A stretch of 63,977 nucleotides of DNA, the filler included, from Trichomonas gallinae (taxonomy: Eukaryota): NCBI GenBank assembly GCA_008369845.1. It is 8 parts of 8 records of this genome, joined end to end, with 100 filler letters (N's around TTAATTAATTAA, not from the genome) between each part and the next. Parts side by side here need not be neighbours in the genome. Positions count along the whole stretch, not along the records: positions 26,867 to 39,509 come from MRSU01000429.1; 7 more parts are not named here. One strand, written 5' to 3'. Below the pieces are notes generated by a model that ran no database searches, was not told where the DNA came from, and was given only the letters and a program-made list of their open reading frames with translations. Below are positions 5,854-62,825 of this stretch, one piece after another (the stretch's first letter is position 1; each line of letters begins with the position of its first letter). A program made the position numbers and the translations under genes.

Positions 5854-7887
5854 TCGAATATTTTTTTGAGCCGACGATAGAAACAATTTGATTATTAATC
5901 AAAATTATTTATATAGACACCATGTATGGCATTAGGAAATGTACGCAGATTCAAAATTTTTGAGGGAATTCAATATCTCATTCAAATGAAATAATCAGGG
6001 CATTCTATTTTATATTGTTATGATTAATGAATTTCATTGAGTTTTCTTTGCATGTCAAAAAAATTGAGAGAAAAATCTGAAATTTTGAGAGCGGTTTTCG
6101 ATATGTTCTAAACAAAGCGGATGAAATAAAGCATTCTAAAAATTTAGCTTTTAAGTTCGATATCAATTTTTCTGAGCTTATTTTGTTTTTTGTTTGTTTT
6201 GAAAGCATATTTAGTTTCTGAGAATATAATTGGTTTCACCATGTAATGCAGTTCTATGATTAAAAATTATTTAACATTTTTCGATTATTATTGGTTATTT
6301 CACTTTCTTACAGTCTAAATAGCACCATAAAAATAATTATTTTGGTATTCTATGCTATCTCATTTTTTAATGTCACATTTTCTTTAGATGCGCAGAATTC
6401 AATTAAGCGTCTAAATTTTTGCTTATTTCACCCGTACGACAGTTATTAAAGCAAATATTACGGAGCGTTTTTTGATCAAATATGTCATTTGTAAACTTAC
6501 CAAATGCAAAATATTTTTGTCATATCTCGTTTTCACGAATAATCTCCATTAATCAGCCAATTTAACACATTCATACACCTTCTCTATATATAGCTGCATA
6601 TGCTAACATTCTCAAAAATATATATTTTGCAAGGTTAATTAATGTTATGTTTTAGATTAACAGGTTATCCTTGTGGCATTCACAAGTAATAGTTTATAAA
6701 TCATCCCTTATACTAAAAACACTAAACACTAATATTATATAATTTTTGTTTTTCTCTTGAGATTAATAGGAATCAAAGGTAGCCATCAGTGTTATATAGT
6801 CAAACTGTGTTGTATATTATAAGATTAGAAAACCGTGTTAAAATATATTTCTAATTTTTTTTGTAATGGATTTATGGCAAACATGCTTTATGTAAATAAC
6901 TATCTATCGCATGCTTAGTGCAATTTCACAAATGGTATGAACAGATTTTTACTTTTCTCAAAAATTAAATTTATCATTATCAAACTGAATAACTCCACTC
7001 GTTATATGAAATATTACGATACTATCAAGAATATGCTGTTTTGCAAATGCAGTTCTTTCCATGCATTCGTGAATTTTCGAACATCACTTGATTTTGATCG
7101 AAATATATGAATTATTAAGTATTAGTTAGCAGAAATATTATGATTGACGAGAAGATTAACTGTGATGTAACAAAAATATTTGAACAAACACGAAGTATTC
7201 AAATTTGGAACTAACACAGTAATATTTCGCACCCAATTTTCATATCTATTTCTTAACCAACTGTTTGTAATTATTAATTTCAATATTTAAAACCTAAATG
7301 TGCAAATATCTTTTTCAAAATATGAAATGAATTATCAAGCCTCAATAACGTCATGTTATTATCTATAAATGGTTCCTGTGTGAAATCATTGAGCTATGCA
7401 ATGAAATTTGAAGAAAAAACCAATGAAAAAATGTTGATGAGAACAAATTTGTGGATTACTGGATAGCATTTCATTAAAATGAATAATTATTAGTAAATAG
7501 TAATTTCCCATGGAATTTCATTTTGTTTTCGTTTATCAACTTATTTTATTTGAATCATATCTTTAATATCATAATTTCAATTCGAGAACTATACTATTGA
7601 ACAATTTATATAACAAGGAATACATAAATCTATTCAATTTGATACCACATTATTGAATTTGGAAAAATTCAAAATTATATCATTTTGAATGTGTTAATTT
7701 TGTTCAATGAGGAAATTAGGGATACTGAAGACTCAGTTGATACTTTTAAGAGCAGCTCCAAAATAAATGCTAATGTTACAAATATCGACATTGGCACAGT
7801 AGTTGATGGTGATATTTTACCATATGATAGCATTGATAAAAGCAAAGATTTCCAAATGCTGTAGAAACTTATGCATTATCCAATCCA

Positions 7888-8136
7888 TTCATAGGCGACA
7901 AATACTACGCATGCCTTGGTATCTGGCTCTCTCACAAGCAATTAGTTCAGGAGCACAACTCAGCAAACCTCGGTTTCACACTTGCACTCTACAAGATTGC
8001 TCATCTCACACAGACAGAGTACAGATCCCTCCTCGACTTCCGCATGAACATGGCAGAGAGGAATGCAACAGCATCGAATTCAATTGCCAACGACGCCATC
8101 AACTGGAGATAGAAGGGCATTGTTAACCAGTTCAAA
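7888..8136 (+). pseudogene. Fragment of a papain/cathepsin L-like cysteine protease (I29 propeptide and start of mature domain)
   Basis: Manual translation FIGDKYYACLGIWLSHKQLVQEHNSANLGFTLALYKIAHLTQTEYRSLLDFRMNMAERNATASNSIANDAINWR*KGIVNQ resembles C1A propeptide plus DWRxKGxVN; in-frame TAG at 8110; no start and no catalytic Cys region. Confidence 0.82.
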
Positions 8137-8159
8137 ACCAAATTTTTATTCGATTCAGT

Positions 8160-8453
8160 TCAATTTGAAATCTCATCACTTGTAGCAAATCTTATTTCTT
8201 TAGGAGCAAGTCTCAAAATCAGAGAAGATTATGATTATTATAATCAATTACTGGTTGCTGCACATTTGGATTTGATCAAATACCGAGCAAAAATAAATTT
8301 AATAGATGAAGATGGACTTACTCCATTAAATTGTGCTGCATTGAAAATGGAGCAAAAGTGAATATTACAGATTATGGGAAAACTTCATTAGATTATGCAA
8401 GGGAGAAAAATCATAAAGATGTTGTTGCAAAGTTGATTGAATATGATACATAA
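8160..8453 (+). pseudogene. Degenerate ankyrin-repeat gene 3' fragment
   Basis: LISLGASLKI..., AKINLIDEDGLTPLNCAA, frameshift, IENGAKVNITDYGKTSLDYAREKNHKDVVAKLIEYDT*; internal deletions relative to the 33-aa repeat. Confidence 0.75.
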
Positions 8454-8482
8454 CGTTAAAATATGTGCCATTATTTTTCATT

Positions 8483-26866: not shown

Positions 26867-27637
26867 AATTTTTTTTTTTTTTTTTTTTTTTTTTGTCCGT
26901 TACCGTTGTTTTCAAATAGTATTGTTTTTGACGTGTAAAGCTATTTATTCTTTGTAATGTCAGGAATAATTTTAATGCAATGAGATGTAAATAATTGGCT
27001 GATCCGTGCTCTAAATCAGATTGATAATCACTGTATCATTACATACTGCATGACCTGCCTTTCAATGTAAATCATTTTGGTTAAATATGATCCAACTTCT
27101 ACTAAGGATGCGTGGAATCCCGAAATATTGCGATTATTTGTAAACTATTCTGCGATTTATCTTATCAACTGTTATTAATAAGTTACATTTAATTGCGATT
27201 GAATTCAATTTGCTGTTCGCTTTTGAATCAGGGAAAAATTACCCATATTTAGATGTAACCAAAGCTTATAGATGATTGTAATGATCAAACAATTATAAAT
27301 CTTCTATTCGAAAAAATATATTCTAATAGCATGCACTATGCAAATGAAAATTCATATGTTGACTAAAATTTTGCAAATCACTCTCGGATGAACAAGATAA
27401 TATGGAATTTAATATAAAAAAATAATATCTTAAGTTTCCAGTCCTCTTCAGTATATTATTAACTCTATTGGAGGCTAAAAGACTGATTCTAATCAGATAT
27501 TATCTGTTACATAATGATTATGAGAATTATTTTGTCAATTTTTTGTAAATAATGAATGAACTTTGCTATCTGATACCTAATATTTCTATATTTTATGTTA
27601 CTCATCCAAAATAAAATCAAAAATGACACTTTTTATA

Positions 27638-27850
27638 ATGGCAAGGAGTTCGAAGTTTTTGATGTGGTACGGTATAGCCGTGGCAATCTTCATTGTTATC
27701 ATCATCATTGCCATCATATCTGTCTATATCTACACAATGAGAACTTCTCCGCCAGCTAAGCCACGCGAGAAAAAGGTTGTCAAGAATAAGAAGGAGGAAG
27801 AACTTGAAGATATTGAAAGTGCATCCGATGGCCATAAGCATAGGGATTAA
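27638..27850 (+). CDS. Small single-pass membrane protein (~70 aa; alternative ATG at 27623)
   Basis: Hydrophobic stretch WYGIAVAIFIVIIIIAIISVYIY followed by a charged tail; coding-like GC content. Confidence 0.65.
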   Translation: MARSSKFLMWYGIAVAIFIVIIIIAIISVYIYTMRTSPPAKPREKKVVKNKKEEELEDIESASDGHKHRD

Positions 27851-28032
27851 TCAAGGATTTTTTTATCGATTCTCTCTTTAATCAAATTATACCTATATCT
27901 TTTTTGTTGCAAATTAATAAACTTAAGTAATTCTATTGTATAAAGCCTTTTGTTAAAAATAGTAATGATTCGCTAACATACATAAAATTTAAAACAAACA
28001 ACTACAAAAGTGGTAATTATTAAAAAACAAAC

Positions 28033-28623
28033 TTACCATGTCCACCCGCTTTTCTTCCTTTTTGTAAGAAGTGCTGGTGACCCATCTGCAGGGCTTAAGT
28101 AATTTGATTTATCTGATGTATCATCAAAATCAGCAAAATCGTCATTTGTGTCCCAAAAGGGAGGAAGAGGACTTGTAGGAATTGTCTGAGCCTTAACTAT
28201 TTTCGTTGGCTCTTCTTCTTCGGGCTCGTCGCTTTCCTGCTCAAGCCTCAGGAGTTCTTCGTAGGCGAGCTTTCCATTTGGATGGCTCTCTAGTAAGTCA
28301 TACTTAAGATCGTTGAGCCTTAATGATTCGACGTAAAGCTCTTGAACTTTTTGTTGAAGATGAACTGATTGAACAATTTCGGAGACTGTTGAGCCTTCTG
28401 GCACAAACTCGACGTTTAACGTTGCATTGTCATCGATGTATTGGTCTTCGAGTGTTTCGTTTGGGTTTAATAAAATTCCTTTGTAGATAAGGAATAACTC
28501 CCAGCCATCAGACACCGAAAAGCGTAATAACTGGATTAGATCAGCTCCTTTGGCATCCTTTCTCATTCTGACTGGTAATATCGTGCCCTGTGGCCATAAC
28601 ACGGTCAGACGGAGGAAATTCAT
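28033..28623 (-). CDS. Ubiquitin-like-domain protein with PLPxFW motif
   Basis: LFLIYKGILLNPNETLEDQYIDDNATLNV is a Ubl pattern; IPTSPLPPFW near the C-terminus. Confidence 0.8.
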   Translation of the reverse strand: MNFLRLTVLWPQGTILPVRMRKDAKGADLIQLLRFSVSDGWELFLIYKGILLNPNETLEDQYIDDNATLNVEFVPEGSTVSEIVQSVHLQQKVQELYVESLRLNDLKYDLLESHPNGKLAYEELLRLEQESDEPEEEEPTKIVKAQTIPTSPLPPFWDTNDDFADFDDTSDKSNYLSPADGSPALLTKRKKSGWTW

Positions 28624-30144
28624 ATATTTATTGTAATTTTAAATAACTCAGAGACGATATTAACAAAAATTACCCTTTTCTGAGAAATTTTACCCTTCAG
28701 GGTGTCAAGCCGAAATTTGATATACAATTTTATGCCTCTCAAAACTAACTTTTTATTTAAAAAATATTCCTTTACAAATGATTAGGAGATTAGTTACAAA
28801 TAAAAAAAATCTTTCTTTCAAAATTTTATTTTATGAATTATTAGCACAAATAAGATATAATGCGATATTAATGAAAAGTGACCAATCAAGAAAAGTGACA
28901 TTTTAAATTTTGTTTAGTTTCAGGTAGAATCGGAATTCAATAAGAATTTCCGTTCGGTTTATCTCTGTTATTCGTTCGTGGTGTCATTTATAACGGAATA
29001 ATAAAGCAATTTAGCGTTTTGGTTGTTGTTCGACTTAATTTTCATCTGTGTTGCTTGATATATTAATTATAGCGCAATATGCCATTTAAACGAAAACCTC
29101 ACCCTCTTATTACCTAGTTTGAACGAAAGTTATATTTGATTGAGTTATTATGATGGTAATAATAGTAATCTTCCTTAATGAATGTTAATATCTGCAAGAT
29201 CTCTTTGGTATTCTATTCTATTTATGAGTATCAATTGTTGACCGTGGAATAATATTGAATTAAGACAACAATTTAGAAACAAGACATGGAAATATGTCAT
29301 TATGGTCAGGTAATATGATGAATTAAATTGTGCATTTTTATAGATAGTAAGCAATATTATTAACCTATTTCTTATGATTTTCATTAGAAAATAAAGTCAA
29401 TAGAAGAATGGCTACATGCTGTAGTTTATTGAGAGTTCAATGAAAATAGCGGAAAACATATAAATATAATCACAAAAATATATTCATAATCGATTTTCCA
29501 ATGTGATGATAGACATTATATTGTTTATCAATTTCTTCAAAGATATGTGCCGTAAATCAGGCGTATGACGGTAGATATCTCAAGTTTGATGAAATTTTTC
29601 ATTTGAAAGAGTTTACAAATTATTTTTCGTTTATTTAATTATCAGATATAGTAGATTAGCAAATTTTAAAAAATGTTTTTCGAAATTTTTCAAAGCACAA
29701 AACAATTTAGAAAAATGTGTATATTTTTGATAGTTGTTTAATAATTTATTAATTTTCTTGAATTGAATTCAATATCGATTATTTTTCAGTCAAAAATTTA
29801 TTATAAAAATGCTATTAATTTAAATAATTATTGTATAAAAAACATTTTTATTCGATTTTTTACTTCTATAACCGATTTTATACATTCAAAAAATAATCAA
29901 TTTCGAAAACAAAATTAACGTTATTGGCATTAAAAACTATATTTAAGATGATATTTTTCGCTGACACGCCTGTAAACAATTTAAACTTATTGGTTAAAAA
30001 TGTGGATCAAATATATTATTAACTCTAATTCAGCAATTCAAAAATAACGAACAAAAAAATTACAAAAATTAATATTATGTATAATTCCCATTGCATTTTA
30101 AATATTTTGACTAAAAAAGCAAATGTTGTCAATTTTTTATAATA

Positions 30145-31254
30145 ATGGATCCAGCAACTCCATTATATCCGCAGAAACTTGGGCAATTTTATTTAGAAGA
30201 TGTTGTAGGTCAAGGTAATACGTGTATTGTAGTTAAAGCACGTGATGCAAACAATAGAAAATACGCTTGCAAAATTATATCAAAATTAAAATTCACATCG
30301 GTAACAAATATCAAGCATTTTCACGACGAACTTAAGATTATGCGAACACTTTCACATCCAAACATTGTTAATTTAGTTGATATTATTCAAGATTCGAACA
30401 ATCTTTACATTTTCGAAGAATTTTGCGAATTGGGCGACTTATCTCGCATGCTTGTGAGAGATAAGTCAATCCCAGATGATCGTATTGGACAAATATTTTC
30501 ACAAATCGTCAAAGGTTTAAATTTCATTCATGAACATCGAATTGCTCATCGCGACATCAAGCCAGAGAATATATTTATGTGCGAGAATGGCCTTGTTAAA
30601 ATCGCTGACTTTGGATACTCTGCATTAAATTCTGATTCAGATTTTCGAAGCACTGTTTGCGGAACATTAGTCTACATTGCTCCCGAAATACTCGAACAAA
30701 AGCCATACAATGCTCTAAAAGCCGATTCATGGAGTTGCGGAATATTATTATATGCAATGGCATCAGGTACATTCCCATGGGAAAAGAAATCACAAGCAGG
30801 AATGATGGAAGAAATCAGATTTAAACCGATAACAATACCTGAATCGGTTTCTCCAGAAATCAAAGATTTAATTTCTCATTTATTAGATAGAAATGTTGAA
30901 ACACGCTTCACTATGGCGCAAACACTGCAGTCGGAATTCATTAAAAAGTATTTAAATGTCGAATCTCCATCGCCACCCACGGGTAACATGAGTCACCAGC
31001 TCAAAAACCAGTTTTCGAAGAGTGCTTTGAACTTCAGTCAAATAAAGGAAGAAAGCATTGTTAATATGCTAAACATGGCTAATCGCAAGCCACCAAAGAT
31101 TTTATCAAAGAAGCCGAAGATTCTCACACCAATCATTGAATCTAACTCGACAATGAAGCTGACGGCTATGGTTAATACTAACAAAATCAAATGTCGATCA
31201 ACAAAGCAAAATACTTTTGGGTATAATACTGTTACTGGTAACTTTGAGTTATAA
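30145..31254 (+). CDS. CAMK-group Ser/Thr protein kinase
   Basis: ACK, HRDIKPEN, DFG, CGTLVYIAPE, DSWSCG; atypical glycine loop GQGNTC. Confidence 0.93.
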   Translation: MDPATPLYPQKLGQFYLEDVVGQGNTCIVVKARDANNRKYACKIISKLKFTSVTNIKHFHDELKIMRTLSHPNIVNLVDIIQDSNNLYIFEEFCELGDLSRMLVRDKSIPDDRIGQIFSQIVKGLNFIHEHRIAHRDIKPENIFMCENGLVKIADFGYSALNSDSDFRSTVCGTLVYIAPEILEQKPYNALKADSWSCGILLYAMASGTFPWEKKSQAGMMEEIRFKPITIPESVSPEIKDLISHLLDRNVETRFTMAQTLQSEFIKKYLNVESPSPPTGNMSHQLKNQFSKSALNFSQIKEESIVNMLNMANRKPPKILSKKPKILTPIIESNSTMKLTAMVNTNKIKCRSTKQNTFGYNTVTGNFEL

Positions 31255-31487
31255 TGTTTGTTTATGTGTATATATATATATATATAATTATCATGATTGT
31301 CTTTAAAACTTGTATTTTATGTCGGTTTTATTAATTTTTAGATTTTTAAATATCATTATGTGGAAATGCAAGTTCTCTATGCGTCTATTATAAATATGAA
31401 TCCGACAAATCGAAAGGCAGAAAATATATTTCTGATGATTTATAATAACAACAATAATATGAAAAAAAAAAATATAGGATATATCTA

Positions 31488-32645
31488 TCATACGTCTGGG
31501 CTATCTCTAGAGCTTAATACTTCAACGAGAAAATCATATGCGCAAATATTTGAAGGAATTTGAGCGATTGCATACCAAACTAGGAATGCCAATATTACAG
31601 GATAAGCAACAGAAAACATAATTTTTCCTTGGTAATTCCCAAAAATGTTATCGAATCCAGCAACATAAGAAAAAACAGCGCAAGGAATGAAATAACGAGA
31701 AGTATCAAGATGACGTAGAAAAGACACATATAAATAAAAGAAAGTAGAGAAAAATCCAACAGGTGAAGCTATTGGTATCAAACTGAGAGATCCTAAGAGT
31801 CCAAGTAAATATTGTGTTGCTATATGCATGGTAATCAACTGATTGCCGTAAAAAGAAGTAAAGAATAAATCGAAAAATAATTTTCCCGAGAAAATTCCCT
31901 GATTTCCGCTATTGAAGTGTATATACGCCATAGAATCATTAAACTGAATCTTGTGCATCCAAACAAGGAATAAATCTGGAAGAAAAGTTGAAAACATTAA
32001 CATTGCGCTTGGAATTTCAAATCTTATTAAATAGCACAATCCAATAATAAATCCTACAGACATTCCTTCTATTCTAGTGAAACATCCACACCAAACAAAC
32101 AGAATCATTAAAGATTTATTATTGAATTTATAATTAATTAATGCTAGACATATAAATGAAACAAATAGAGGTTCACTTGCGAGAACTGAATGATAAATAA
32201 GAAATCTAATTGGAATTAAAGATAAAACAAAAGTAGAGAATTCTGGATAACGAACACATTTGTATGCAATCATGAGTCTCCTGTATGAATAAGCTGTGAT
32301 GAAATTTGATACGATAATACTAAGAAACGCTCCAATTTTATAATTTCCCATGCAAAAGAAAGAGCAAATGCGAATTAACATTGGATATCCTGGTAGATGG
32401 CAAGCAAAATAAGATGAATCGTAGTTGAAATATCTTTTCCAAATATAATCATCTGGAATTCTGTACATTGTTATAGCTGCATATATATAATTTGGACCAT
32501 CCCAATATTGAAGGATTGTATTTATCGATGATTTGTATGCTGTTACGCTCCAAATTATCAAAGTTGGTAATAAAAATGCAGAAAAGCATATGAAATCATA
32601 CTTGTTGATATTCCAAAAACCTTTTGGTTGCTTAACGGGCAGCAT
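31488..32645 (-). CDS. Polytopic membrane GT-C fold glycosyltransferase (PIG-V/mannosyltransferase-like)
   Basis: Many hydrophobic segments; YWDGPNY after the first TM, HLPGYPMLIR, SEPLF and TRIEG parallel PIG-V/GT-C motifs (WD, FPxYP, SExLF, RxxG); first in-frame ATG at 32645. Confidence 0.7.
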   Translation of the reverse strand: MLPVKQPKGFWNINKYDFICFSAFLLPTLIIWSVTAYKSSINTILQYWDGPNYIYAAITMYRIPDDYIWKRYFNYDSSYFACHLPGYPMLIRICSFFCMGNYKIGAFLSIIVSNFITAYSYRRLMIAYKCVRYPEFSTFVLSLIPIRFLIYHSVLASEPLFVSFICLALINYKFNNKSLMILFVWCGCFTRIEGMSVGFIIGLCYLIRFEIPSAMLMFSTFLPDLFLVWMHKIQFNDSMAYIHFNSGNQGIFSGKLFFDLFFTSFYGNQLITMHIATQYLLGLLGSLSLIPIASPVGFFSTFFYLYVSFLRHLDTSRYFIPCAVFSYVAGFDNIFGNYQGKIMFSVAYPVILAFLVWYAIAQIPSNICAYDFLVEVLSSRDSPDV

Positions 32646-33942
32646 TCCATCGTATATTAATCGAAAACAGCGAAGAATGTTTTTGAGTTCCAAAACTTTT
32701 TGACATGTAAAATTAAAAAATTTGTCATTGTAAATTTGAAAAAGTCAAATTAATTTCTCATTGATTTCTAAACTGGGTGCCCTAAGGTGGCCTTTATTGA
32801 GAGGAATTGAGAAAAAAAATTAAAAAAAAAACCTTCAAATATAGGGATCACCTTAGTGAAACTTCTTGTCCAAATTTTTTCTCATAAAAGGAGTTTATTT
32901 AGAACAATAAAACAAATACAGTATATATTGATATAATATGTAGTTTGGAATAGGCATATTACTACCTGCATATCTCCTCTGTTTGAGGAAGATCTGGTCT
33001 GATTACAAAAATTTAGGCGAGATATTATTGCAATCACAACACATCAATCTCAGCCTAGCTATAAAACTGGTTTTGAAGGGTAAAGATGGTTAATTAATCA
33101 AATGATGCAAACATTTGTGTATTCAGGTCTCATTCTATTCTAGAGCAAGGAGATTGCGTATTTCCTGACAGCAATCAACATTATTATAAAAAATTCAAAA
33201 ATCTTTAAAAATTTTGATCTAATGAAGCTGAATAGTAGTCATGTATTCACAAATACCTTAGTATTTGGTATGATGAAGTTGCAATGATGCTTGCATGATA
33301 AGAAATTCTAGCGAATTGTGTGGATCATTTTTTGAGTAGGTTTCGGTATGTAAAAGTTTGTCGCTATGCTTGGTGTATTAATTTATTGGTATTGAAGATC
33401 TGGAGACTTGTGGAATTTAATTTTTTTGTTTTATATTGAGAAATATTTTTTAAATTCGAAGAATTGTTAGGGTAACTCGCTTATTTAAATATGCTGAGCT
33501 TTTGTGAGCATTTGTAGTCTAACTTGGAAATTATTATGCTTATTTCGAATAATGATTTACATTATTCTGTTACGGAGTGTTGTTTGTTATTAAAAATAAG
33601 TAGTTTTCACTCAGTCTGAACGGATGATTTAATGACTCCTGTTGGATCAGTAGCTTGCTTTCAGTGGACAACTTAATGAAACCAATTTATAATAAATGGT
33701 TGCAATATTGACCAGAAATTGGATGTTTATATAGAGATTTATAACATAATTTAGCATCATATATATTGGATAAGTCATATTCATTTAATAAAATGCAATG
33801 TAATGATATTTATTTAAAAATTTGATGGTTGATATTTATATTCGGTTGTAATAAATAGAATTTTATGATTAAATTATGTTGTTATCATAGGAAAATCATG
33901 ATTTGATTTGATTTTTATTTAAAAAATCTGTCACTTTTTATT

Positions 33943-35598
33943 ATGGACAAGGAAAAAAATCGGAATATTATCCATAATGACACAAATTATATCGTGAATA
34001 TTAATAGGCTTCGAGAGTTATCTGATGTCACTAGCAAGATTATTGACTCGCGTGACACGGATCCCATTAAATTTTCTGATTCTCTCGATGAACAATCTTT
34101 TTCGACATTTGTACAATACATAAATGAGATCAATTTCAGAATAAACAGCAATAATGCACTAAATTTACTCAAAGCATCGATGTTATATAACTGCAAAAAT
34201 CCGTTTAATCAAGTTCAACAATTTTTATCCTCGACAAAATACACTGATTACGCCATTCAAGCATTAGAATTATCATACAAGTATCAGAAAGTACTCGAAA
34301 TCCTAGAAAAATATATAGCAAACAATTTTAATCATTATATTCACAGACCTCAGTTTCCAAACTTGCCATGTCACATAATATACAGATTAATAACATGGTA
34401 CATTCCTGATTTCGAAATTACAAACGATATCCTCGAATTATATTTTAAAATTTTGGAGATTAAAGGCACACAAGCCACACCATTATTCCTAACTATCGAT
34501 TACTCGAAGCTTTCACCATTGACAATTACGAGAATCATCGGAATGAGCCAATTAGATTTTGATTCTATTGGCCCTCTTATTATGAAATACGTAGAAAAGA
34601 CACAACAAGACCGTCAGGCCATGGAAGACTTGTTGAGCCAAAAACGCAACCAAGTTTCCGTTCTTAAATCAGAATTTGATCGAGTAAATACAGTTTACGA
34701 ATCAACAGTACAGCGCCAGCGCTTATTAACAAGCAAACTAGCAGATTTAGAGTCCAAGCGCGATGCCCTTATATCAGAACTTAAAGCTCAAACTGAAAGA
34801 GCTGCGCAATTAGAAGAACAAATCACACAAAGAAGAAACGAAACAGTGCAAATCAACAAGCAGAGGGATGATATAAATTCGCAGAAACTCGCCGTCCAAA
34901 AAGAAACAGATGAAGTCCAGAATGACATCGCAATCTTAAAACAGCAGATAGCAGACAGAGAAATGCAGCAAAAAGCCGCGCTCGCTGCCAGAGAATTTGC
35001 ACGTCGTGATGAAGAGATGCGCAAAGTCGCAGAGCGCCAGCGCCAAGAAGAGATGAGGAAACAAGAAGAAATGGAAAAGCAGAAAATCATAGAAAACTCT
35101 TCACAAGTCGAACAAAAATCTCAGTCACAGACAGAAAAAGTGAGCGATAATAACTACGTGGAGCCATCGCTGACACTAATAGAGTTCGATGCTGAATCTT
35201 TCAAGCGTGCCTTCCTTGAGAAAGACATAAAGCCGCAGATATGTACACCGCCGTCAGCTGAGTACTGCCTCAAAGCGTCCGGTTTCGGTCGTGCATGCGA
35301 ACTCGAGTATATGTGGACGTGCGTGCAAAACATGGACGCTGTCTACAGGAGTGGATATGGTGCACTGCTCCTCACTAATGATCCGCAATCGCTGGACCTC
35401 GCTGCTACTTTAATATGCCAGGCAGCGGAAAAGGATGAACCCTACGCATTATATAATTTAGGCGCTTTAATTGTTTCTGGCTTAGTTGACGGAGAAAAAG
35501 AAGAGGCTGCTGATTATATATGCAGGGCAGCTATGAAAGGCGAACCTGATGCGCAGCTTATCGTCAAAGAACTCGTTCATTGGAATGCTTTGAAATAA
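33943..35598 (+). CDS. BTB/BACK-like N-terminus, long coiled coil, C-terminal Sel1-like repeats
   Basis: INSNNALNLLKAS...YIANNF...LPCHII pattern, E/Q/K/R heptad region, AAEKDEPYALYNLG and AAMKGEPDAQ Sel1 motifs. Confidence 0.75.
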   Translation: MDKEKNRNIIHNDTNYIVNINRLRELSDVTSKIIDSRDTDPIKFSDSLDEQSFSTFVQYINEINFRINSNNALNLLKASMLYNCKNPFNQVQQFLSSTKYTDYAIQALELSYKYQKVLEILEKYIANNFNHYIHRPQFPNLPCHIIYRLITWYIPDFEITNDILELYFKILEIKGTQATPLFLTIDYSKLSPLTITRIIGMSQLDFDSIGPLIMKYVEKTQQDRQAMEDLLSQKRNQVSVLKSEFDRVNTVYESTVQRQRLLTSKLADLESKRDALISELKAQTERAAQLEEQITQRRNETVQINKQRDDINSQKLAVQKETDEVQNDIAILKQQIADREMQQKAALAAREFARRDEEMRKVAERQRQEEMRKQEEMEKQKIIENSSQVEQKSQSQTEKVSDNNYVEPSLTLIEFDAESFKRAFLEKDIKPQICTPPSAEYCLKASGFGRACELEYMWTCVQNMDAVYRSGYGALLLTNDPQSLDLAATLICQAAEKDEPYALYNLGALIVSGLVDGEKEEAADYICRAAMKGEPDAQLIVKELVHWNALK

Positions 35599-36026
35599 TA
35601 ATATTTTTTATGTGTGTGTTTTATATAGATTTATTGTTAAATGTTTTATTCTTGTACCTGATTCTTGTTTAAATGTTTATTATTTTCATGAACAATCAAA
35701 ATTTAATATTGAAATTAATTTTCATCAAAAAATCAAACAAATGAAACAAAAATTTAATATATCAATCAACTATATTTTTCATTTTCAAAATTCCCATCTA
35801 ATGAAATAATGATAATAAAATTATTTTATATATCTTTATAATCTTTTATATGGATGAAATATGTTGTAGGGATTTCAAAATTATTTAATGTTTATGTGAT
35901 AAAATATTGGAATTATCTGTAATATCATGAGAGAAAGAAAATGAAATATATTTGACATGTAAAGTATTTTACATGACAGATATAAAATTACGTGTCAATT
36001 ATTTTAATTAACGTATATATTGGTGT

Positions 36027-37441
36027 ATGAGTGTTTCACCAGCAGTTATTGTTAAATTTATCCAAGCAGCAAAGGACGGTAATGTTGAAGCATTGAAGAA
36101 ATTCATTGAAGACGGTGTTCCAGTTAATACTGTTGATAAATGCGGAATTCATTTTTATCTTTTTTTACAGCACTCCATTGGGCAGCAGCATCAGGACAAC
36201 CAGAAGTTATTACTTACTTAATCTTTATCGGAGCTGATCTCGCAGCGAAAGCGAAAGATGGTGTTTATTTTTAATTTTATTCAACTCCACTTCATATTGC
36301 CGCACAGAAGCATAAACTTAACGCCGCGCATTTACTTATAGAAGCAGGAGCCTCAGCAGTCGAAGAGAACGATGAAAAGAAGACGCCAGCCGATCTTGCG
36401 AAAGATGATCCTCCCATGTACTCATTACTCGCCGGAGTCGAGCGCTCCATAGATAACAAGAACGATGACAACATACTCGATGCAGCAACAAACCTTTTAT
36501 CGTCTACACTTGATCCTGTGAAGTCCGCAGAAGAAAAAGTTATGCTTACATGCCAGAAAGTCATTGACGAGGCGCACAGCATCGAGAGACCACCACTAAA
36601 TCAATACAAGAAGTGCAAGGAATCATTGGTTCAGCACGCAGCGATAAATAATCAATTTAAGCAGGCTTTCGCATCTATTGGAAAATATAAGGATCAAGTT
36701 GGTGTCAACTGTGAGAACGTTTCGTTAATGTGTAATACACTCGAAGAAAACGAGAAGGCGATGAGAAGTCGCATGCAAGCAAGCAGAACAGCAAACTGCG
36801 CTACTCGTGAATCTCATCGTGTCGTTACTGACCATCTCACACAGAAGCAGGCTGAATTAGCTTCAGTTTCTGCTGAATTAGAAAAATACCAGAAATTAGT
36901 CGAAGAATTTACAGCAAAGCGTAATGAATTACAGAAGGAAGTCGATGAACTCACTAAATCTCAACAAGAACTCAGCAATTCTAACGAAGATGAAACAAAT
37001 AACGAAACACGCTTAACAATGCACCAAGAAAGCCTTCAAAACACACGCCAGCTGATCGATAAAGGCGTTACATCGCTCAAAGAGCTCGATTCTAACACAA
37101 CCGACAGAATGCTTAGTACTGGCCTCGAATATCTCGATTTCCTGCGTAAATACAACGCGTATGTTAAGAGCATACTCAATACAATGGACAGTAGAATTAA
37201 GACGATGCATGATCGAATAGATATGCAAGCAGCGAATATCGAAGAAATTCCTGTGCTCGAACTGAATATGGATAAAACTAAGATTGAAGGTGTTGTGAAA
37301 GAATATGAAATTAACGTTGACAAGTATAATAGAAGAAGGCAAAAGATTATTAATTTATTGGAATCAATTCAACAAGATTATTTGAAGCTGAAGGATGAAA
37401 TTTCTAAGTTTGGCAGGGAACTTGATCCGCTCGAAGAATAA
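36027..37441 (+). CDS. Ankyrin-repeat plus coiled-coil protein (~459 aa) interrupted by two short inserts; proposed join 36027-36146, 36164-36262, 36281-37441
   Basis: Joined translation ...VNTVDKCG/FTALHWAAASGQPEVITYLIFIGADLAAKAKDG/STPLHIAAQKHKLNAAHLLIEAGA...KKTPADLA runs in frame into ORF 36416-37441; 1415-35=1380 nt. Confidence 0.8.
36147..36163 (+). other. 17-nt U-rich intervening sequence 1 (non-canonical intron candidate; exact ends ambiguous)
   Basis: ATTCATTTTTATCTTTT between DKCG and (F)TALH; shifts the frame. Confidence 0.65.
36263..36280 (+). other. 18-nt U-rich intervening sequence 2 (non-canonical intron candidate; exact ends ambiguous)
   Basis: GTTTATTTTTAATTTTAT between AKDG and STPLH; contains an in-frame TAA. 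Confidence 0.65.
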
Positions 37442-37723
37442 TCGCATTTTTATTTGATTTTATTATCTTAAAACTGATTTTATCTGTGTTTTGAAAAATC
37501 AACATCATTAATCAAACATATTACTATTAACTAGAATATTTATCATAAAGAAATGGTTTTAAAAAACTAAATTTAAAATTTCATAAAAAATATTAACTTA
37601 AAAATTCATTTTTTTTTTTTTACATAATAACAATATCTTGTAACAAAAACACGATTTGTATTAATAAAAATTCTCTATTAATAAAAAATTAAAATATTCT
37701 ATTATTATGATAGAAAACATGTA

Positions 37724-39016
37724 TTACTGTGATTGGAGAATGTTTTCATGGCGATGTTTCTTATCTTTCGCTTTCCATATTTTAACGAGATTATCTTTTG
37801 ACGATGTTATTAGTTTATCACCCATATAATTGATGTCAAGAGTCAGAATTATGTCGGAATGAGCTCTAAGCAGTTCTTCCATTTCGCATGTTTCTGTATT
37901 CCATATCCTTGCCGTTGTGTCACTGCTTGTTGTAACTAATTTGTAGCCTTGCGGCGTAAATCTTACTGATGACACCTCTCCTGCGTGTCCATAGCATGTT
38001 CCAACTAGTTCTCCCGTCTCAGTATTCCAAATTTTAGCTGTTTTATCTGATGAACATGTTGCAACTCTTTTTCCATCAACAGAAACAGCTGTGTCAACTA
38101 TAGGACCTTCATGGCCTTTCATTATATATTGTGCAAGTGTCTGTCTTATGTCCCAGATTCTTGTTGACGCGTCTAATGAAGATGTAATGATCCTTCTTCC
38201 TTGTAGATCGAAATGGACATTAGATATTTCTGCCTTATGTCCTCTTAGAGTTGAAACGCATTCTCCTGTCCTTATATCCCATAATCTCGCTGTATTATCC
38301 GCTGATCCAGAAATAAACAAAGGCTCAGTGCTGCAAAACTCAACACACTGTATTTCTCCAGCATGCTCGTCGAATGTGTGCAAAGTTGCGCCTATTTCCA
38401 CATCATATAAAATGCAAGAAGAATCAAATGATCCTGAAACAACATATTTCGAGGATGGATCGAATCTTATCGTAACAACTTCTTTCGTGTGTCCTGTAAG
38501 TAAATAAATGCATTTTGCGGACTGCAAATCCCAAATTCGGCAAGTTCTATCGAATGATGATGTGGCTGCGAGATTTCCTGTTGGTAAATTGAAGCAGCAA
38601 TCGGATACTGCATTAGTATGGCCGTTTAAAGCGCAAATCAATTGACCTGTTTCTGAATCCCAAAGTTTTGCTGCTCTATCGTATGAATATGTCATGAAAA
38701 TCTCTCCTCCTTTATTAAATTTCGCTCCAATGATAGGCATTACGTGCGTTTTGTAGGATTTGACATCGTTATAATTTGAATATTCAAGAAATTGTGAATT
38801 TGTTATCTCTTTTAGGGCCTTCTTAATGTAATTTTCATTTGTTGGATTAAAGTCTTCGTTTTGAGTCATTATTTGAACTGTTAAAGCAGGAATATCTGTC
38901 AAAATGTTTAATTCTGGTATGTTGAGATTTCTTTTAACCAATTTTCCACTACCATCAACTACTTCAGCATATAAAGCAGGTGGATAATATCTTGCGTATA
39001 ATTTCTGCAAAGCCAT
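37724..39016 (-). CDS. DAW1: Dynein assembly factor with WD repeats (ODA16/WDR69)
   Basis: N-terminal RYYPP motif, FNKGG...SYDR, FNLPTG...SFDRTC and ~8 WD40 repeats; 430 aa. Confidence 0.85.
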   Translation of the reverse strand: MALQKLYARYYPPALYAEVVDGSGKLVKRNLNIPELNILTDIPALTVQIMTQNEDFNPTNENYIKKALKEITNSQFLEYSNYNDVKSYKTHVMPIIGAKFNKGGEIFMTYSYDRAAKLWDSETGQLICALNGHTNAVSDCCFNLPTGNLAATSSFDRTCRIWDLQSAKCIYLLTGHTKEVVTIRFDPSSKYVVSGSFDSSCILYDVEIGATLHTFDEHAGEIQCVEFCSTEPLFISGSADNTARLWDIRTGECVSTLRGHKAEISNVHFDLQGRRIITSSLDASTRIWDIRQTLAQYIMKGHEGPIVDTAVSVDGKRVATCSSDKTAKIWNTETGELVGTCYGHAGEVSSVRFTPQGYKLVTTSSDTTARIWNTETCEMEELLRAHSDIILTLDINYMGDKLITSSKDNLVKIWKAKDKKHRHENILQSQ

Positions 39017-39509
39017 TCAATAAAAATGATCATATATGATTACAGTCGCATGTATAATAAATTTCTATCGCAATATTTTAATTTAAACAAGAAATTCAAA
39101 TATTTGATTTAATAAACGTGCATCATTTCTCATATCTAATATCTATAGACAAAGAAAAAAACTATGCCACGATAGATGGCGTTTTCCAAGAAGCTAATTC
39201 AACTGAAAATCGTAAAATATTAATTCAAACTGAAGAAGGATAAATATCTCGTATTAATTATGAAATATTTTTTATGTAATGAAAAAATAATAACAGAATA
39301 GCTGACATCATTTGTCCTTTATGTGATTATATAATATTTTGCAAATTAATAAATAAAAATATCAAACAAATAGAACTTTATAAGCGTATATAAACAAAAA
39401 TTCTCTATTATAAAGGTATGAATATGCATAATTAGAAAGTTGTAAATACTTGATAATGGATATAAGCTTTTCCTTCATTTTCTCTGAAGCCAATGTAAAA
39501 TGTACAATG

Positions 39510-47232: not shown

Positions 47233-47297
47233 TAGTGTAATGGTTATCATGTAAGATTGTCGTTCTTTTGATCCGGGTTCGATTCCCGGTGACCGAG
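47233..47297 (+). tRNA. tRNA-Asp(GTC), first ~7 nt lost at the contig edge
   Basis: D-arm TAGTGTAATGGTTATCA, anticodon arm AAGA-TTGTCGT-TCTT with GTC at 47259-47261, T-arm CCGGG-TTCGATT-CCCGG, 3' acceptor TGACCGA+G, then an oligo-T Pol III terminator. Confidence 0.9.
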
Positions 47298-58152: not shown

Positions 58153-58633
58153 TTAAATTGTTGGTTTATTTAACACAACAAAAAATTTATTTTAATCATA
58201 TAATCACAATATATTTATAAGTACAATATTCAGTTTATTAAGATTTCATTATTATTTTATATAAGAATGAAATTAAAATTGCATCAGGAGATTTGGGAAA
58301 TTTTCCTTTTTATCTGCGAACAATTTTAATGAGCAGGTGAAGAGCTCTGCGTAATCATCTTCAAATATCTGTATTAAATGCAAAATATAAAATACCCCCT
58401 TTTAATTTCCTCTACAACTCTCAATCTAGCACAGAATTATAATTCTTTAATGAGAGTGAACAGAAAAGTGATATGATGCTATAAGGCCATCATTCTGCTC
58501 GACTTTACCATGAATTTTCATTATGATATATTCGATTTCAATTTTTTGAGTTATTTAATAAAAAAGTTATATATATCAAGAGAAAATAAATAATGTCTTG
58601 ACTAAATTTTTATTCCTCTCACCAAAAATTAAA

Positions 58634-59430
58634 TTATGTCAAGAGAGTTGCCTTTGTTGTAATCAAAGCCTCGTCCACATTCCTCCTCCTAACGACGAGG
58701 ATTGCAATGGCAACGACCAAAGCGATGATCACTGCGCAGCAACGCATCCAACAATTGCCCATACCGGGAAGTGGTTCTTGGACTTGCCTGCATCACCATC
58801 CTTTTGGCCTTCTTAGTATTCTGAGAAAACTTCTTCTTCGATCTTCTTGCCGATTAATGCAATGCTATCGAATCTGATGTATCCACCGTTTGCTTCGATT
58901 GCAACTCTGTTGAGGTCATCCATAAATGCTGTGAGGTTGACACTTGTGAAGTTGTAAATAATTGTGTCCATGGATGATGTATATGTCTCGATCTGTGGCT
59001 TAATGAATGACATGATATAGTCGTATTCGAACTTGAGATCATTGAAAATCTGCTTGGCTGTGGCCTTTGGACTGTTGACGTATTCTAAAACCTTCTTGAG
59101 GCCAGCAATGTATTCATCAGCCTTGCCATAGCAGCATTAGTGATGTTGTGGACTGTTGTGTGTTAGAGTTGAGTAACATTCTCGAATGGTGGAAGGACTT
59201 CGAGACCACGCAATGTGACACCCTTAAGTGCCTCTCTGACGGTGATGTCCTGTGTCTTGCTGAGTTTAGAATAAAACTGTGCAGCAGTGACGTAAATGTC
59301 GCCTTATGGGAGGCATTTGATGAGGTCGCCGAATGTGAACTCTTCTTTCAGTTCTTTTGCAATATCTTTGATGATATTTGCGATGTTCCTGAGTGTTCCA
59401 TGAACTGTGAGTGAGTCAATGATGATGAAT
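58634..59430 (-). pseudogene. 5'-truncated pseudogene of a single-pass surface protein
   Basis: GC-rich coding-like DNA with three in-frame TAA and two frameshifts; ends FPVWAIVGCVAA/AVIIALVVAIAILVVRRRNVDEALITTKATLLT*. Confidence 0.8.
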
Positions 59431-61042: not shown

Positions 61043-61489
61043 GATACGATATTCTTAGTATTTGCGTCAATGCATCACTAACCGTAAATATTCATATATT
61101 CATATAAAGATTATATTTCATATATTAAATATGACTTCTGATGAAAAAAAAATAATTAATTCAAATTATCTCCAAAATAGACGTACGGCGAGGAAAGTCG
61201 CCGTTAGAGATCATATTCCCCTATGTCATATGTATCCAACAGGCATGGTTTCGAGTCGATCTGAAAAGGCGGAGGGAGTTCCCCCCCGCCTTTATTATAA
61301 AGTATCGTGGCATTGAATTTCAATTAGTTTTATCTCAATTTTGTCTTTTTGCATAATAATATGCAAACAAAAATGTATCTTTCTCGATAGATGAATACTT
61401 AGGAGGCCAAAAATCAATCTAAATGTCCATACTTCAGTATTTTTGAAAATAATGTTGCACTAGGAAAAGTCATAGACTATAATAAGAAC

Positions 61490-62825
61490 GAAAAAGTCAC
61501 ATACTATATCGATTTCAATAATGGAGCTGTCAATGATTCTAAAACTCTTAATGGTTCTGCCAAAGATCCAATATATGAAACATTCGAATACAACTTCAAT
61601 ATGCCACTATCAGTTGGCAAATAATTATTAAACATTACAGCAGTCGATATAGCTAACCTCACGTCAAACGTTTTCCTGAAGTATCTCCTTGTTAATGAAA
61701 AACCTAGAATAACAGTCACACAAGACAGCATCCGCCCAGAGTACTTTACTGGTGTTGTTGTTGAATTTTCTGGCACATTGTGGGATGATTTGAGTGCGAA
61801 GTTTATTATCGTTTCGATGAAGATTACAACTTTTTCGTCGATGAAACATTCGAATGCAATTCAAGCACAGTTCCATATAGTGTTGTATTCAATCTTCGTG
61901 AAAAGAAGCTCCAATATGGTACACACAAGCTCCATGTTTGGGCAGAAGACAACTTTGGTATTGAATCAAATGAATTGGTATACGAGTTCAATTATAGAGA
62001 GCTTCATGTTCCAAAACTCGAAATCATGAATCCATATGATAACGAACACACAGTTAATGATTACATCATGGTCAAAGGGAAAGTTTATGACGAGGATTAC
62101 GATGAAACAATAGAATTATGGTACAAAGATCCAATTTCTGATCCTACAGCACCATTCCAGCTTGCATCAGTAACACCTGAACGCATCCCATCAAAGATAC
62201 AAGGTGTAGAATTTTCTGTAATCTTCCAGATCCCAAGGTACCACCCAATAGGTACTAATCTCTTACATCTTCCAGGCACGTGACAACCACGGTGGATTCT
62301 CACGTGATGCTAAATACTATTTCACTGCCAAGAAGATTCCAGCTCCAACAGATCCTCCATAACCAACAACATATCCACTTCCTCCTAACTACTTACCATC
62401 AAATAGTACTGTACCAGAAGGCTTCAATCCATATAACTCCAGCTATACATCTTTCACAAAGACAAATGCCACTGTTTCTGAGGGAGAAGAAGAATACTCA
62501 ACATGGACTTTGACATCTTCTTCCATCCAAATTTATGCTGAAGTTCCACCACCGACTCCACTCCCATCTGAGACACCAGTTCCACCTGATCCAACACCAA
62601 AGCCATTCATTCCAGGCGGCGGTGATGGAGCAGCTGCCAAAATCGCACAGCCTCAAAAAAAGAAGCAAGAGAAGTCTAATCTCATTCCTATCATTGCAGG
62701 TGCCGTAGCAGCTGTTGTTGCTGCAGGTGTTGTTGCTGCTGTTGCTGCAGGTGCAATCATTTGGCACGAGGCTGCGAAGAAGGCGAAAGAGTTCGAGTTC
62801 AACGAAGAAGATATGGAAGCTTACC
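61490..62825 (+). pseudogene. Disrupted Bap-like/Ig-repeat surface protein gene with Pro/Thr stalk and C-terminal TM helix
   Basis: Beta-rich repeats (VEFSGTLWDD, HKLHVWAEDNFGIES, VKGKVYDEDYDE, FQARDNHGG), PTP-rich stalk, TM LIPIIAGAVAAVVAAGVVAAVAAGAIIW; split over several frames with in-frame stops. Confidence 0.78.

Follow-up and report, generated by a model that had tools for sequence, protein, structure and literature searches.

Two AG-less inserts of 17 and 18 nt in an ankyrin gene of Trichomonas gallinae as candidate ultrashort introns

The type B introns of Trichomonas, a textbook case of an intron-poor eukaryote, span 23–28 nt (PMC12316389; PMC13548475; PMC6260720). In the validated T. 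vaginalis set all 63 introns have GT and AG at their ends, none is shorter than 23 nt, and U12-type introns are reported absent from this species (PMC12316389). A preliminary description of the locus studied here had put the lower limit for T. vaginalis at about 25 nt, slightly above the shortest published intron. Type B introns are also listed near the starts of ankyrin genes; Table S2 of the same study holds eight such introns, each GT-AG and 25 nt long, behind first exons of 96–116 nt and with 6/8 in phase 0 (PMC12316389). Seven of these eight are from T. stableri and one is from T. vaginalis (PMC12316389, Table S2).

Tiny and non-canonical introns are known from other lineages. The tiny introns of Stentor retain GT-AG. 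They are handled at about 15 nt by the Stentor spliceosome, and their proposed branch point is a lone A close to the 3' end (PMC10946202). In Fritillaria borealis 95% of the introns are reported to be non-canonical, which has been linked to a duplicated U2AF (PMC13326754).

Here we describe two inserts in an ankyrin gene of T. gallinae. Their ends and their size fall outside every described Trichomonas intron. By analogy, they would act most like the AG-independent introns of Fritillaria while being about as small as the tiny introns of heterotrichs.

The gene and its two inserts

The gene lies in a 63,977-nt stretch of joined contigs (the window), in which an ORF survey found intron-free ORFs to predominate. 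From an ATG at 36027 it reads for 40 codons, the last one Gly, after which codons for Thr-Ala-Leu-His-Trp resume in another frame. From this run 32 more codons lead to a second Gly, and Thr-Pro-Leu-His follows after the second site. At site 1 the Thr codon follows the Gly codon after 20 nt, and site 2 has 21 nt in between. Once 36147-36163 and 36263-36280 are omitted, a 459-aa ORF free of other lesions is obtained, with the following parts.

Exon 1: 36027..36146 (+), 40 codons, from the ATG to the Gly closing ankyrin repeat 1
Putative intron 1: 36147..36163 (+), 17 nt, phase 0, AT..TT, 71% T; retention shifts the frame
Candidate branch A of intron 1: 36157 (+), position 11, -7 from the 3' end (predicted)
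Exon 2: 36164..36262 (+), exactly 99 nt, one ankyrin repeat of 33 codons, phase 0 at both ends
Stop codon if intron 1 is kept: 36219..36221 (+), 64-aa product; an equivalent short ORF is predicted for P0279 and P0282
Putative intron 2: 36263..36280 (+), 18 nt, GT..AT, or 36262-36279 with TG..TA; 72% T; in-frame TAA at 36272-36274
Candidate branch A of intron 2: 36274 (+), position 12, -7, within TTTAAT (predicted)
Exon 3: 36281..37441 (+), remaining ankyrin region and a long C-terminal part, likely coiled-coil, to the stop codon
Third repeat junction: 36368..36400 (+), 99 nt downstream of the second, without insert; Lys replaces Gly

The preliminary description had placed both inserts at these coordinates, with an in-frame TAA in the second, and had named two junction peptides that their removal would restore. 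Positions and stop codon were found as described, and the recomputed 459-aa ORF contains both peptides. It had also held that the third junction is free of an insert, which the sequence at 36368..36400 confirms, and that the inserts have no branch motif and no AG at the end restoring the repeat, with which our scans agree.

Ankyrin repeats were matched by Pfam in the gene region, and exon 1 gave a weak Ank_4 match under the curated cut-off. Of the 2877 T-[P/A]-L-[H/M] motifs in generic ankyrin proteins retrieved by searches, 1855 have a Gly two residues ahead, so both restored junctions are of the usual ankyrin type. The last 341 aa of exon 3 match, at 81% identity, T. vaginalis TVAG_083630 / TVAGG3_0983690, which is annotated at 342 aa without an ankyrin N-terminus. 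This protein has no Pfam match, which fits a gene model starting downstream of the breaks, and an ankyrin domain was likely missed in the annotation of this T. vaginalis orthologue.

The introns start with ATTCATTTT and GTTTATTTT and are identical at 9 of their first 11 nt. GGN followed by RTTYATTTTTA occurs at these two sites only when both strands of the window are scanned. Neither insert has a terminal AG (the ends are AT..TT for the first, GT..AT or TG..TA for the second) or a (T/A)CTAA branch box, and the shortened type B 3' consensus is matched at 3/11 nt by intron 1 and at 5/11 nt by intron 2. The donor of intron 2 fits GTWYWD and that of intron 1 misfits at +1 only; both introns have T at +8 and +9. 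An A at -7 is present in both introns and in the intron inferred for the related protein P0280; these do not count as three independent cases, since intron 1 is homologous to the P0280 intron. Judged from sequence, the spliceosomal features of the inserts are weak (no AG, no box, few 3' consensus matches), and the donor-like 5' ends point somewhat towards the spliceosome.

With type B introns the inserts share the genus, the T-rich short interior, the GTWYWD donor of intron 2, the T at +8/+9 and the A at -7 that the shortest forms are expected to have. They differ by one AT start and by their 17–18 nt, and were rejected as type B members since GT...AG, the fused branch box (TCTAAC..AACAG) and a length of 23–28 nt are all absent. 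The likeness to Stentor is one of size and of a lone A in the 3' part (PMC10946202); that lineage is unrelated, and the inserts lack AG. Fritillaria offers the closest working model, in which a spliceosome that recognises 3' ends in an altered way removes introns precisely without GT/AG (PMC13326754), whereas here two ultrashort introns in an intron-poor genome are concerned. The nonconventional introns of euglenids are similar in having no GT-AG and an unknown machinery, and this class was rejected because neither insert has the paired N3CDG...CH'GN5-6 signature or a fold (PMC12501133).

Two further classes were considered. U12-type (AT-AC) introns have an RTATCCTTT donor and an AC or AG acceptor, and Ire1 cleaves at the consensus CNG|CNGN in stem-loops. 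Neither insert shows the U12-type donor and acceptor. Like the inserts, the Ire1/RtcB introns of HAC1/XBP1 and tRNA introns are short, non-GT-AG and frame-switching (PMC5435141); the Ire1/RtcB class was rejected with the cleavage motif at 0/4 insert ends and stem-loops that are not significant (z about 0).

DNA contigs, a transcript-like contig and orthologues

Contigs at the locus came from the runs X1 and X2; X3, X4, X5 and X6 yielded no contig, an outcome that counts neither way. The comparison covered 35900-37500 of the window. A 3820-nt contig of X1, a DNA-type run, aligned at 35953-37500 with 46 substitutions and no gaps. It retains both inserts, so that an independent DNA contig speaks against the assembly error that the preliminary description had kept in view. 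A 1270-nt contig of X2, spanning 36031-37335, had 40 substitutions and 35 gap letters, namely 17 at 36147 and 18 at 36262. Of the 38 listed X1 variants in its span it shares 31 and differs at 7; X2 is nearer to the insert-keeping X1 than to the window sequence.

Deletion coordinates give the first left-out base in leftmost placement, as was seen for 4/4 X1 deletions checked. Under this convention intron 1 can be placed in one way, AT..TT, and for intron 2 GT..AT is preferred over TG..TA by homology to intron 1. In-register repeats at the insert ends measure 0 nt for intron 1 and 1 nt for intron 2. The ends, formerly described as ambiguous, are thereby settled by the X2 contig for insert 1 and narrowed to one base for insert 2.

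X2 behaves as a transcriptome. None of the runs listed for this locus is recorded as RNA; the kind of X2 is given in the run record as a guess, and its RNA nature rests on the behaviour of its contigs. In the ORF tally, which covered 8 listed of 11 pieces (whole or nearly whole contigs) at 26900-39500, 3810 of 3874 nt lay in ORFs, with 64 nt left over directly beyond a stop codon. Of the 12601 nt of this region 7556 belong to ORFs, and random placements did equally well in 10/20000 cases. Depth ranged from 3.7 to 87 in X2, whereas the listed X1 contigs had depths of 20–33 and bridged intergenic DNA. The remaining 7 listed X2 contigs were gap-free.

As with an intron, the inserts are present in DNA and exactly absent from what is likely mature RNA, seen in one contig from another individual. 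The insert-free form is one assembled contig of mean depth 6.05, for one gene, from an individual that differs from the DNA; as 11 substitutions of the comparison are outside the listed set, a mismatch might sit beside a junction. On this evidence we hold it very probable that the inserts are two introns currently removed at the RNA level, by whatever route. The preliminary description had left removal from RNA and ribosomal bypassing or frameshifting side by side: exact non-GT-AG removal is supported by X2 against the DNA contigs, and bypassing and frameshifting are disfavoured by the assembled RNA form without inserts.

For the 64-aa stub read without splicing, three of three candidates were relatives. 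Exon 1 is identical in 40/40 residues to P0279 and in 36/40 to P0280. Back-inferred from the proteins, P0279 (98%) and its cluster member P0282 have a 17-nt insert at site 1, and P0280 (74%) has one of different sequence in the 17-nt register. The out-of-frame tail of P0280 allows 24/25 identities in the spliced frame, with a shuffle maximum of 12 (n=300), and 11/17 in the unspliced frame. P0003 (49%) has an inferred site-1 insert of about 43 nt that starts ATTY and carries a pyrimidine at -7, the latter counting against a spliceosomal reading. The comparison of orthologues proposed in the preliminary description thus places an insert at site 1 in P0279, P0282, P0280 and P0003, as judged from protein. 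In P0281 (66%) the Gly is followed by Val-Ser-Phe-Asn-Phe-Phe, which translates back to at least 39 nt of T-rich sequence beginning with GT; identified from its upstream side in the protein, the site-1 insert is probably shared here as well.

P0003 was found to have no insert at site 2, so that intron 2, which lies at the matching position one repeat further on, would have arisen or disappeared since the two lineages separated. Counting against the intron reading, no full-length orthologue protein (about 460 aa) was found among four matches. P0004, P0008 and P0009 begin at a common downstream Met, on contigs that may be of DNA or of RNA.

In the spliced frame 36 of the 40 listed variants are synonymous, including 6/6 upstream of intron 2. 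The flanks are not neutral, in agreement with the earlier view that the inserts are unlikely to be random decay. Fixed position, free length and purifying selection together amount to intron-like behaviour.

Route of removal and rival explanations

We favour, with about as much doubt as confidence, that the inserts are introns cut by the ordinary spliceosome with relaxed end rules, as shrunken relatives of type B introns. The (G/A)TTYAT start would be read as a type-B-like donor, and the A at -7, which lies within the U-rich tract, would serve as branch point. The 3' cut would then be placed by its distance from this A and not by an AG. Such an intron may have been copied with, or between, ankyrin repeats; exon 2, with 99 nt in phase 0, equals one repeat unit, which would account for the common repeat position of both introns. 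The spliced product would be a predicted 459-aa ankyrin/coiled-coil protein. Unspliced RNA would yield the 64-aa stub, so that splicing would be needed for expression. The first exons of 96–116 nt published for ankyrin genes are close to the 120 coding nt of exon 1 (PMC12316389, Table S2), and these published introns of ankyrin genes may occupy the repeat junction of intron 1. TVAG_083630 / TVAGG3_0983690 was not found in the supplementary tables of PMC12316389 and PMC13548475 that were searched.

A rather unlikely alternative, and the one that survives best, is removal without a spliceosome, in which an endonuclease or guide RNA would read the ankyrin exon context or an exon-exon stem, two cuts would be made and a ligase would join the ends. 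It fits the X1 and X2 evidence equally well. The insert ends are unconserved (AT/GT at the start, TT/AT at the end), both sites have the exon context Gly and x-Thr-Pro/Ala-Leu-His in common, and the third junction, which has no Gly, has no insert. In addition, the minimum-energy folds at both sites pair the flanking exons and loop out the insert. However, this folding does not exceed chance (z -0.02 to 0.91), the exon-exon pairing was equalled in 31 and 18 of 200 flank shuffles, and the Ire1-type motif is lacking at all four ends. The type-B-donor-like 5' ends, and the GT start of the P0281 insert, also argue against it. Rfam found one tRNA alone within the window. More doubtful still is the extended form of this explanation, a second splicing system of parabasalids that would be spliceosome-free and guided by an exon code, would act on AG-less U-rich inserts of 17 to 40+ nt at one fixed site of the ankyrin repeat in a large share of the family, and would account for some of the 1,465 split genes of T. 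vaginalis.

That the DNA of the X2 organism itself has no inserts, through exact intron loss or a processed retrocopy, is improbable. X1 and X2 are separate samples, and the 7/38 differing variant sites would allow for a strain difference. Against this, insert 1 is kept in the window, in X1, in the P0279 strain and in the more distant P0280 orthologue, and the sequence of X2 resembles X1 more than the window. A spliced RNA template is the established route of intron loss, and an exact double loss would itself call for such a template.

Somewhat less probable again is an artefact of reverse transcription or assembly, with template switching across the U-rich tracts of X2. The single contig of depth 6 is assembled cDNA, and the U-rich inserts are flanked by T. 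But the end repeats are 0 and 1 nt, whereas template switching calls for direct repeats at both ends, two separate events would each have to bring back the reading frame together with the spacing of G-x-T-[P/A]-L-H, and the 7 other listed X2 contigs are gap-free.

We consider it very improbable that the mRNA retains the inserts and that ribosomes bypass them, frameshift or read through. U-runs and an in-frame TAA do exist. Readthrough has been proposed for 118 curated T. vaginalis transcripts, and the described split or 'readthrough' genes, ankyrin genes included, have a single transcript across a frameshift or stop, explained by ribosomes acting on unspliced mRNA (bioRxiv 10.64898/2026.08.31.748405). 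Here, in contrast, the sole transcript-like contig is without the break, no insert-retaining contig was found in X2, and insert length varies from 17 to about 43 nt among orthologues.

A pseudogene, an assembly error or canonical introns (GC-AG of 29 nt, GT-AG of 45 nt) are largely refuted: split genes are plentiful in the Trichomonas genomes described (bioRxiv 10.64898/2026.08.31.748405) and in-frame GC..AG (36142-36170) and GT..AG (36263-36307) exist, but the independent DNA contig retains the inserts, the variants are mostly synonymous, a Gln-to-Arg change in the unspliced frame of P0279 would imply loss of the AG of the 29-nt form, and the two junctions, which the preliminary description had set out for checking, would delete the conserved TAL/TPLH while X2 lacks 17 and 18 nt instead.

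Further cases and meaning for Trichomonas genes

The window scan, and the matches listed from the collections, gave no second gene with such introns. The insert pattern matched at least 116 metagenome loci and 44 GTDB loci, with 0 and 4 loci in the viral scans. Among the matches listed, these were chance matches by translation apart from three, and no parabasalid example was present. Two of the three (L121 and L137) are bacterial ankyrins with in-frame linkers, and the third (L093) is an ankyrin exon after an AG-containing tract. A scan for orthologues in JGI metagenomes gave none among 255 pattern matches, and ankyrin searches with the region of insert 2 read through returned generic many-repeat proteins. 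From 77 motifs with longer linkers, the best 10 (at least half hydrophobic) were unlike the inserts. In the openly accessible literature we did not find AG-less ultrashort introns described for parabasalids.

Several other features of the window were noted. A second, decayed ankyrin-like gene at 7640-8460 (+) has several frame breaks and no U-rich insert at two Gly-x-Thr junctions. Genes with several frameshifts are found at 58637-59429 (-) and 61403-62824 (+), with no insert-like motif in the window scan, and are put down to assembly errors or pseudogenes. Loose GT..AG candidates resembling type B lie at 7195-7219 (+, 25 nt) and 58369-58395 (-, 27 nt). At 32767-33687 one X1 contig skips 921 nt and other X1 contigs pile up; the skipped stretch is likely a strain-specific mobile insertion. 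A partial tRNA match at 47233-47289 (+) lies at a contig start.

The way in which introns are called bears on such cases. By default, STAR counts gaps of up to 20 nt as deletions. The published intron pipelines drop junctions without canonical motifs (PMC12316389). The motif filters and the STAR default together would make AG-less ultrashort introns invisible to pipelines of this kind. Annotations of Tritrichomonas give 2,500 genes with introns and 7,715 putative introns, far more than the 63 of T. vaginalis; the second of the two studies judges them unsupported (PMC11978803; PMC13735942). As a speculation, some of these putative introns could be such inserts forced into GT-AG models.

If confirmed, the two introns of this ankyrin gene would be among the shortest mRNA introns known, with the terminal AG also missing, and would either test the minimal needs of the spliceosome or reveal another splicing activity. 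The split genes of T. vaginalis, 923 frameshifted and 542 split by a stop, are read as pseudogenes or as readthrough (bioRxiv 10.64898/2026.08.31.748405). Confirmation would make this question, raised by the 2007 genome, testable on existing long-read RNA data, and AG-less ultrashort introns may explain some of the split genes of Trichomonas.
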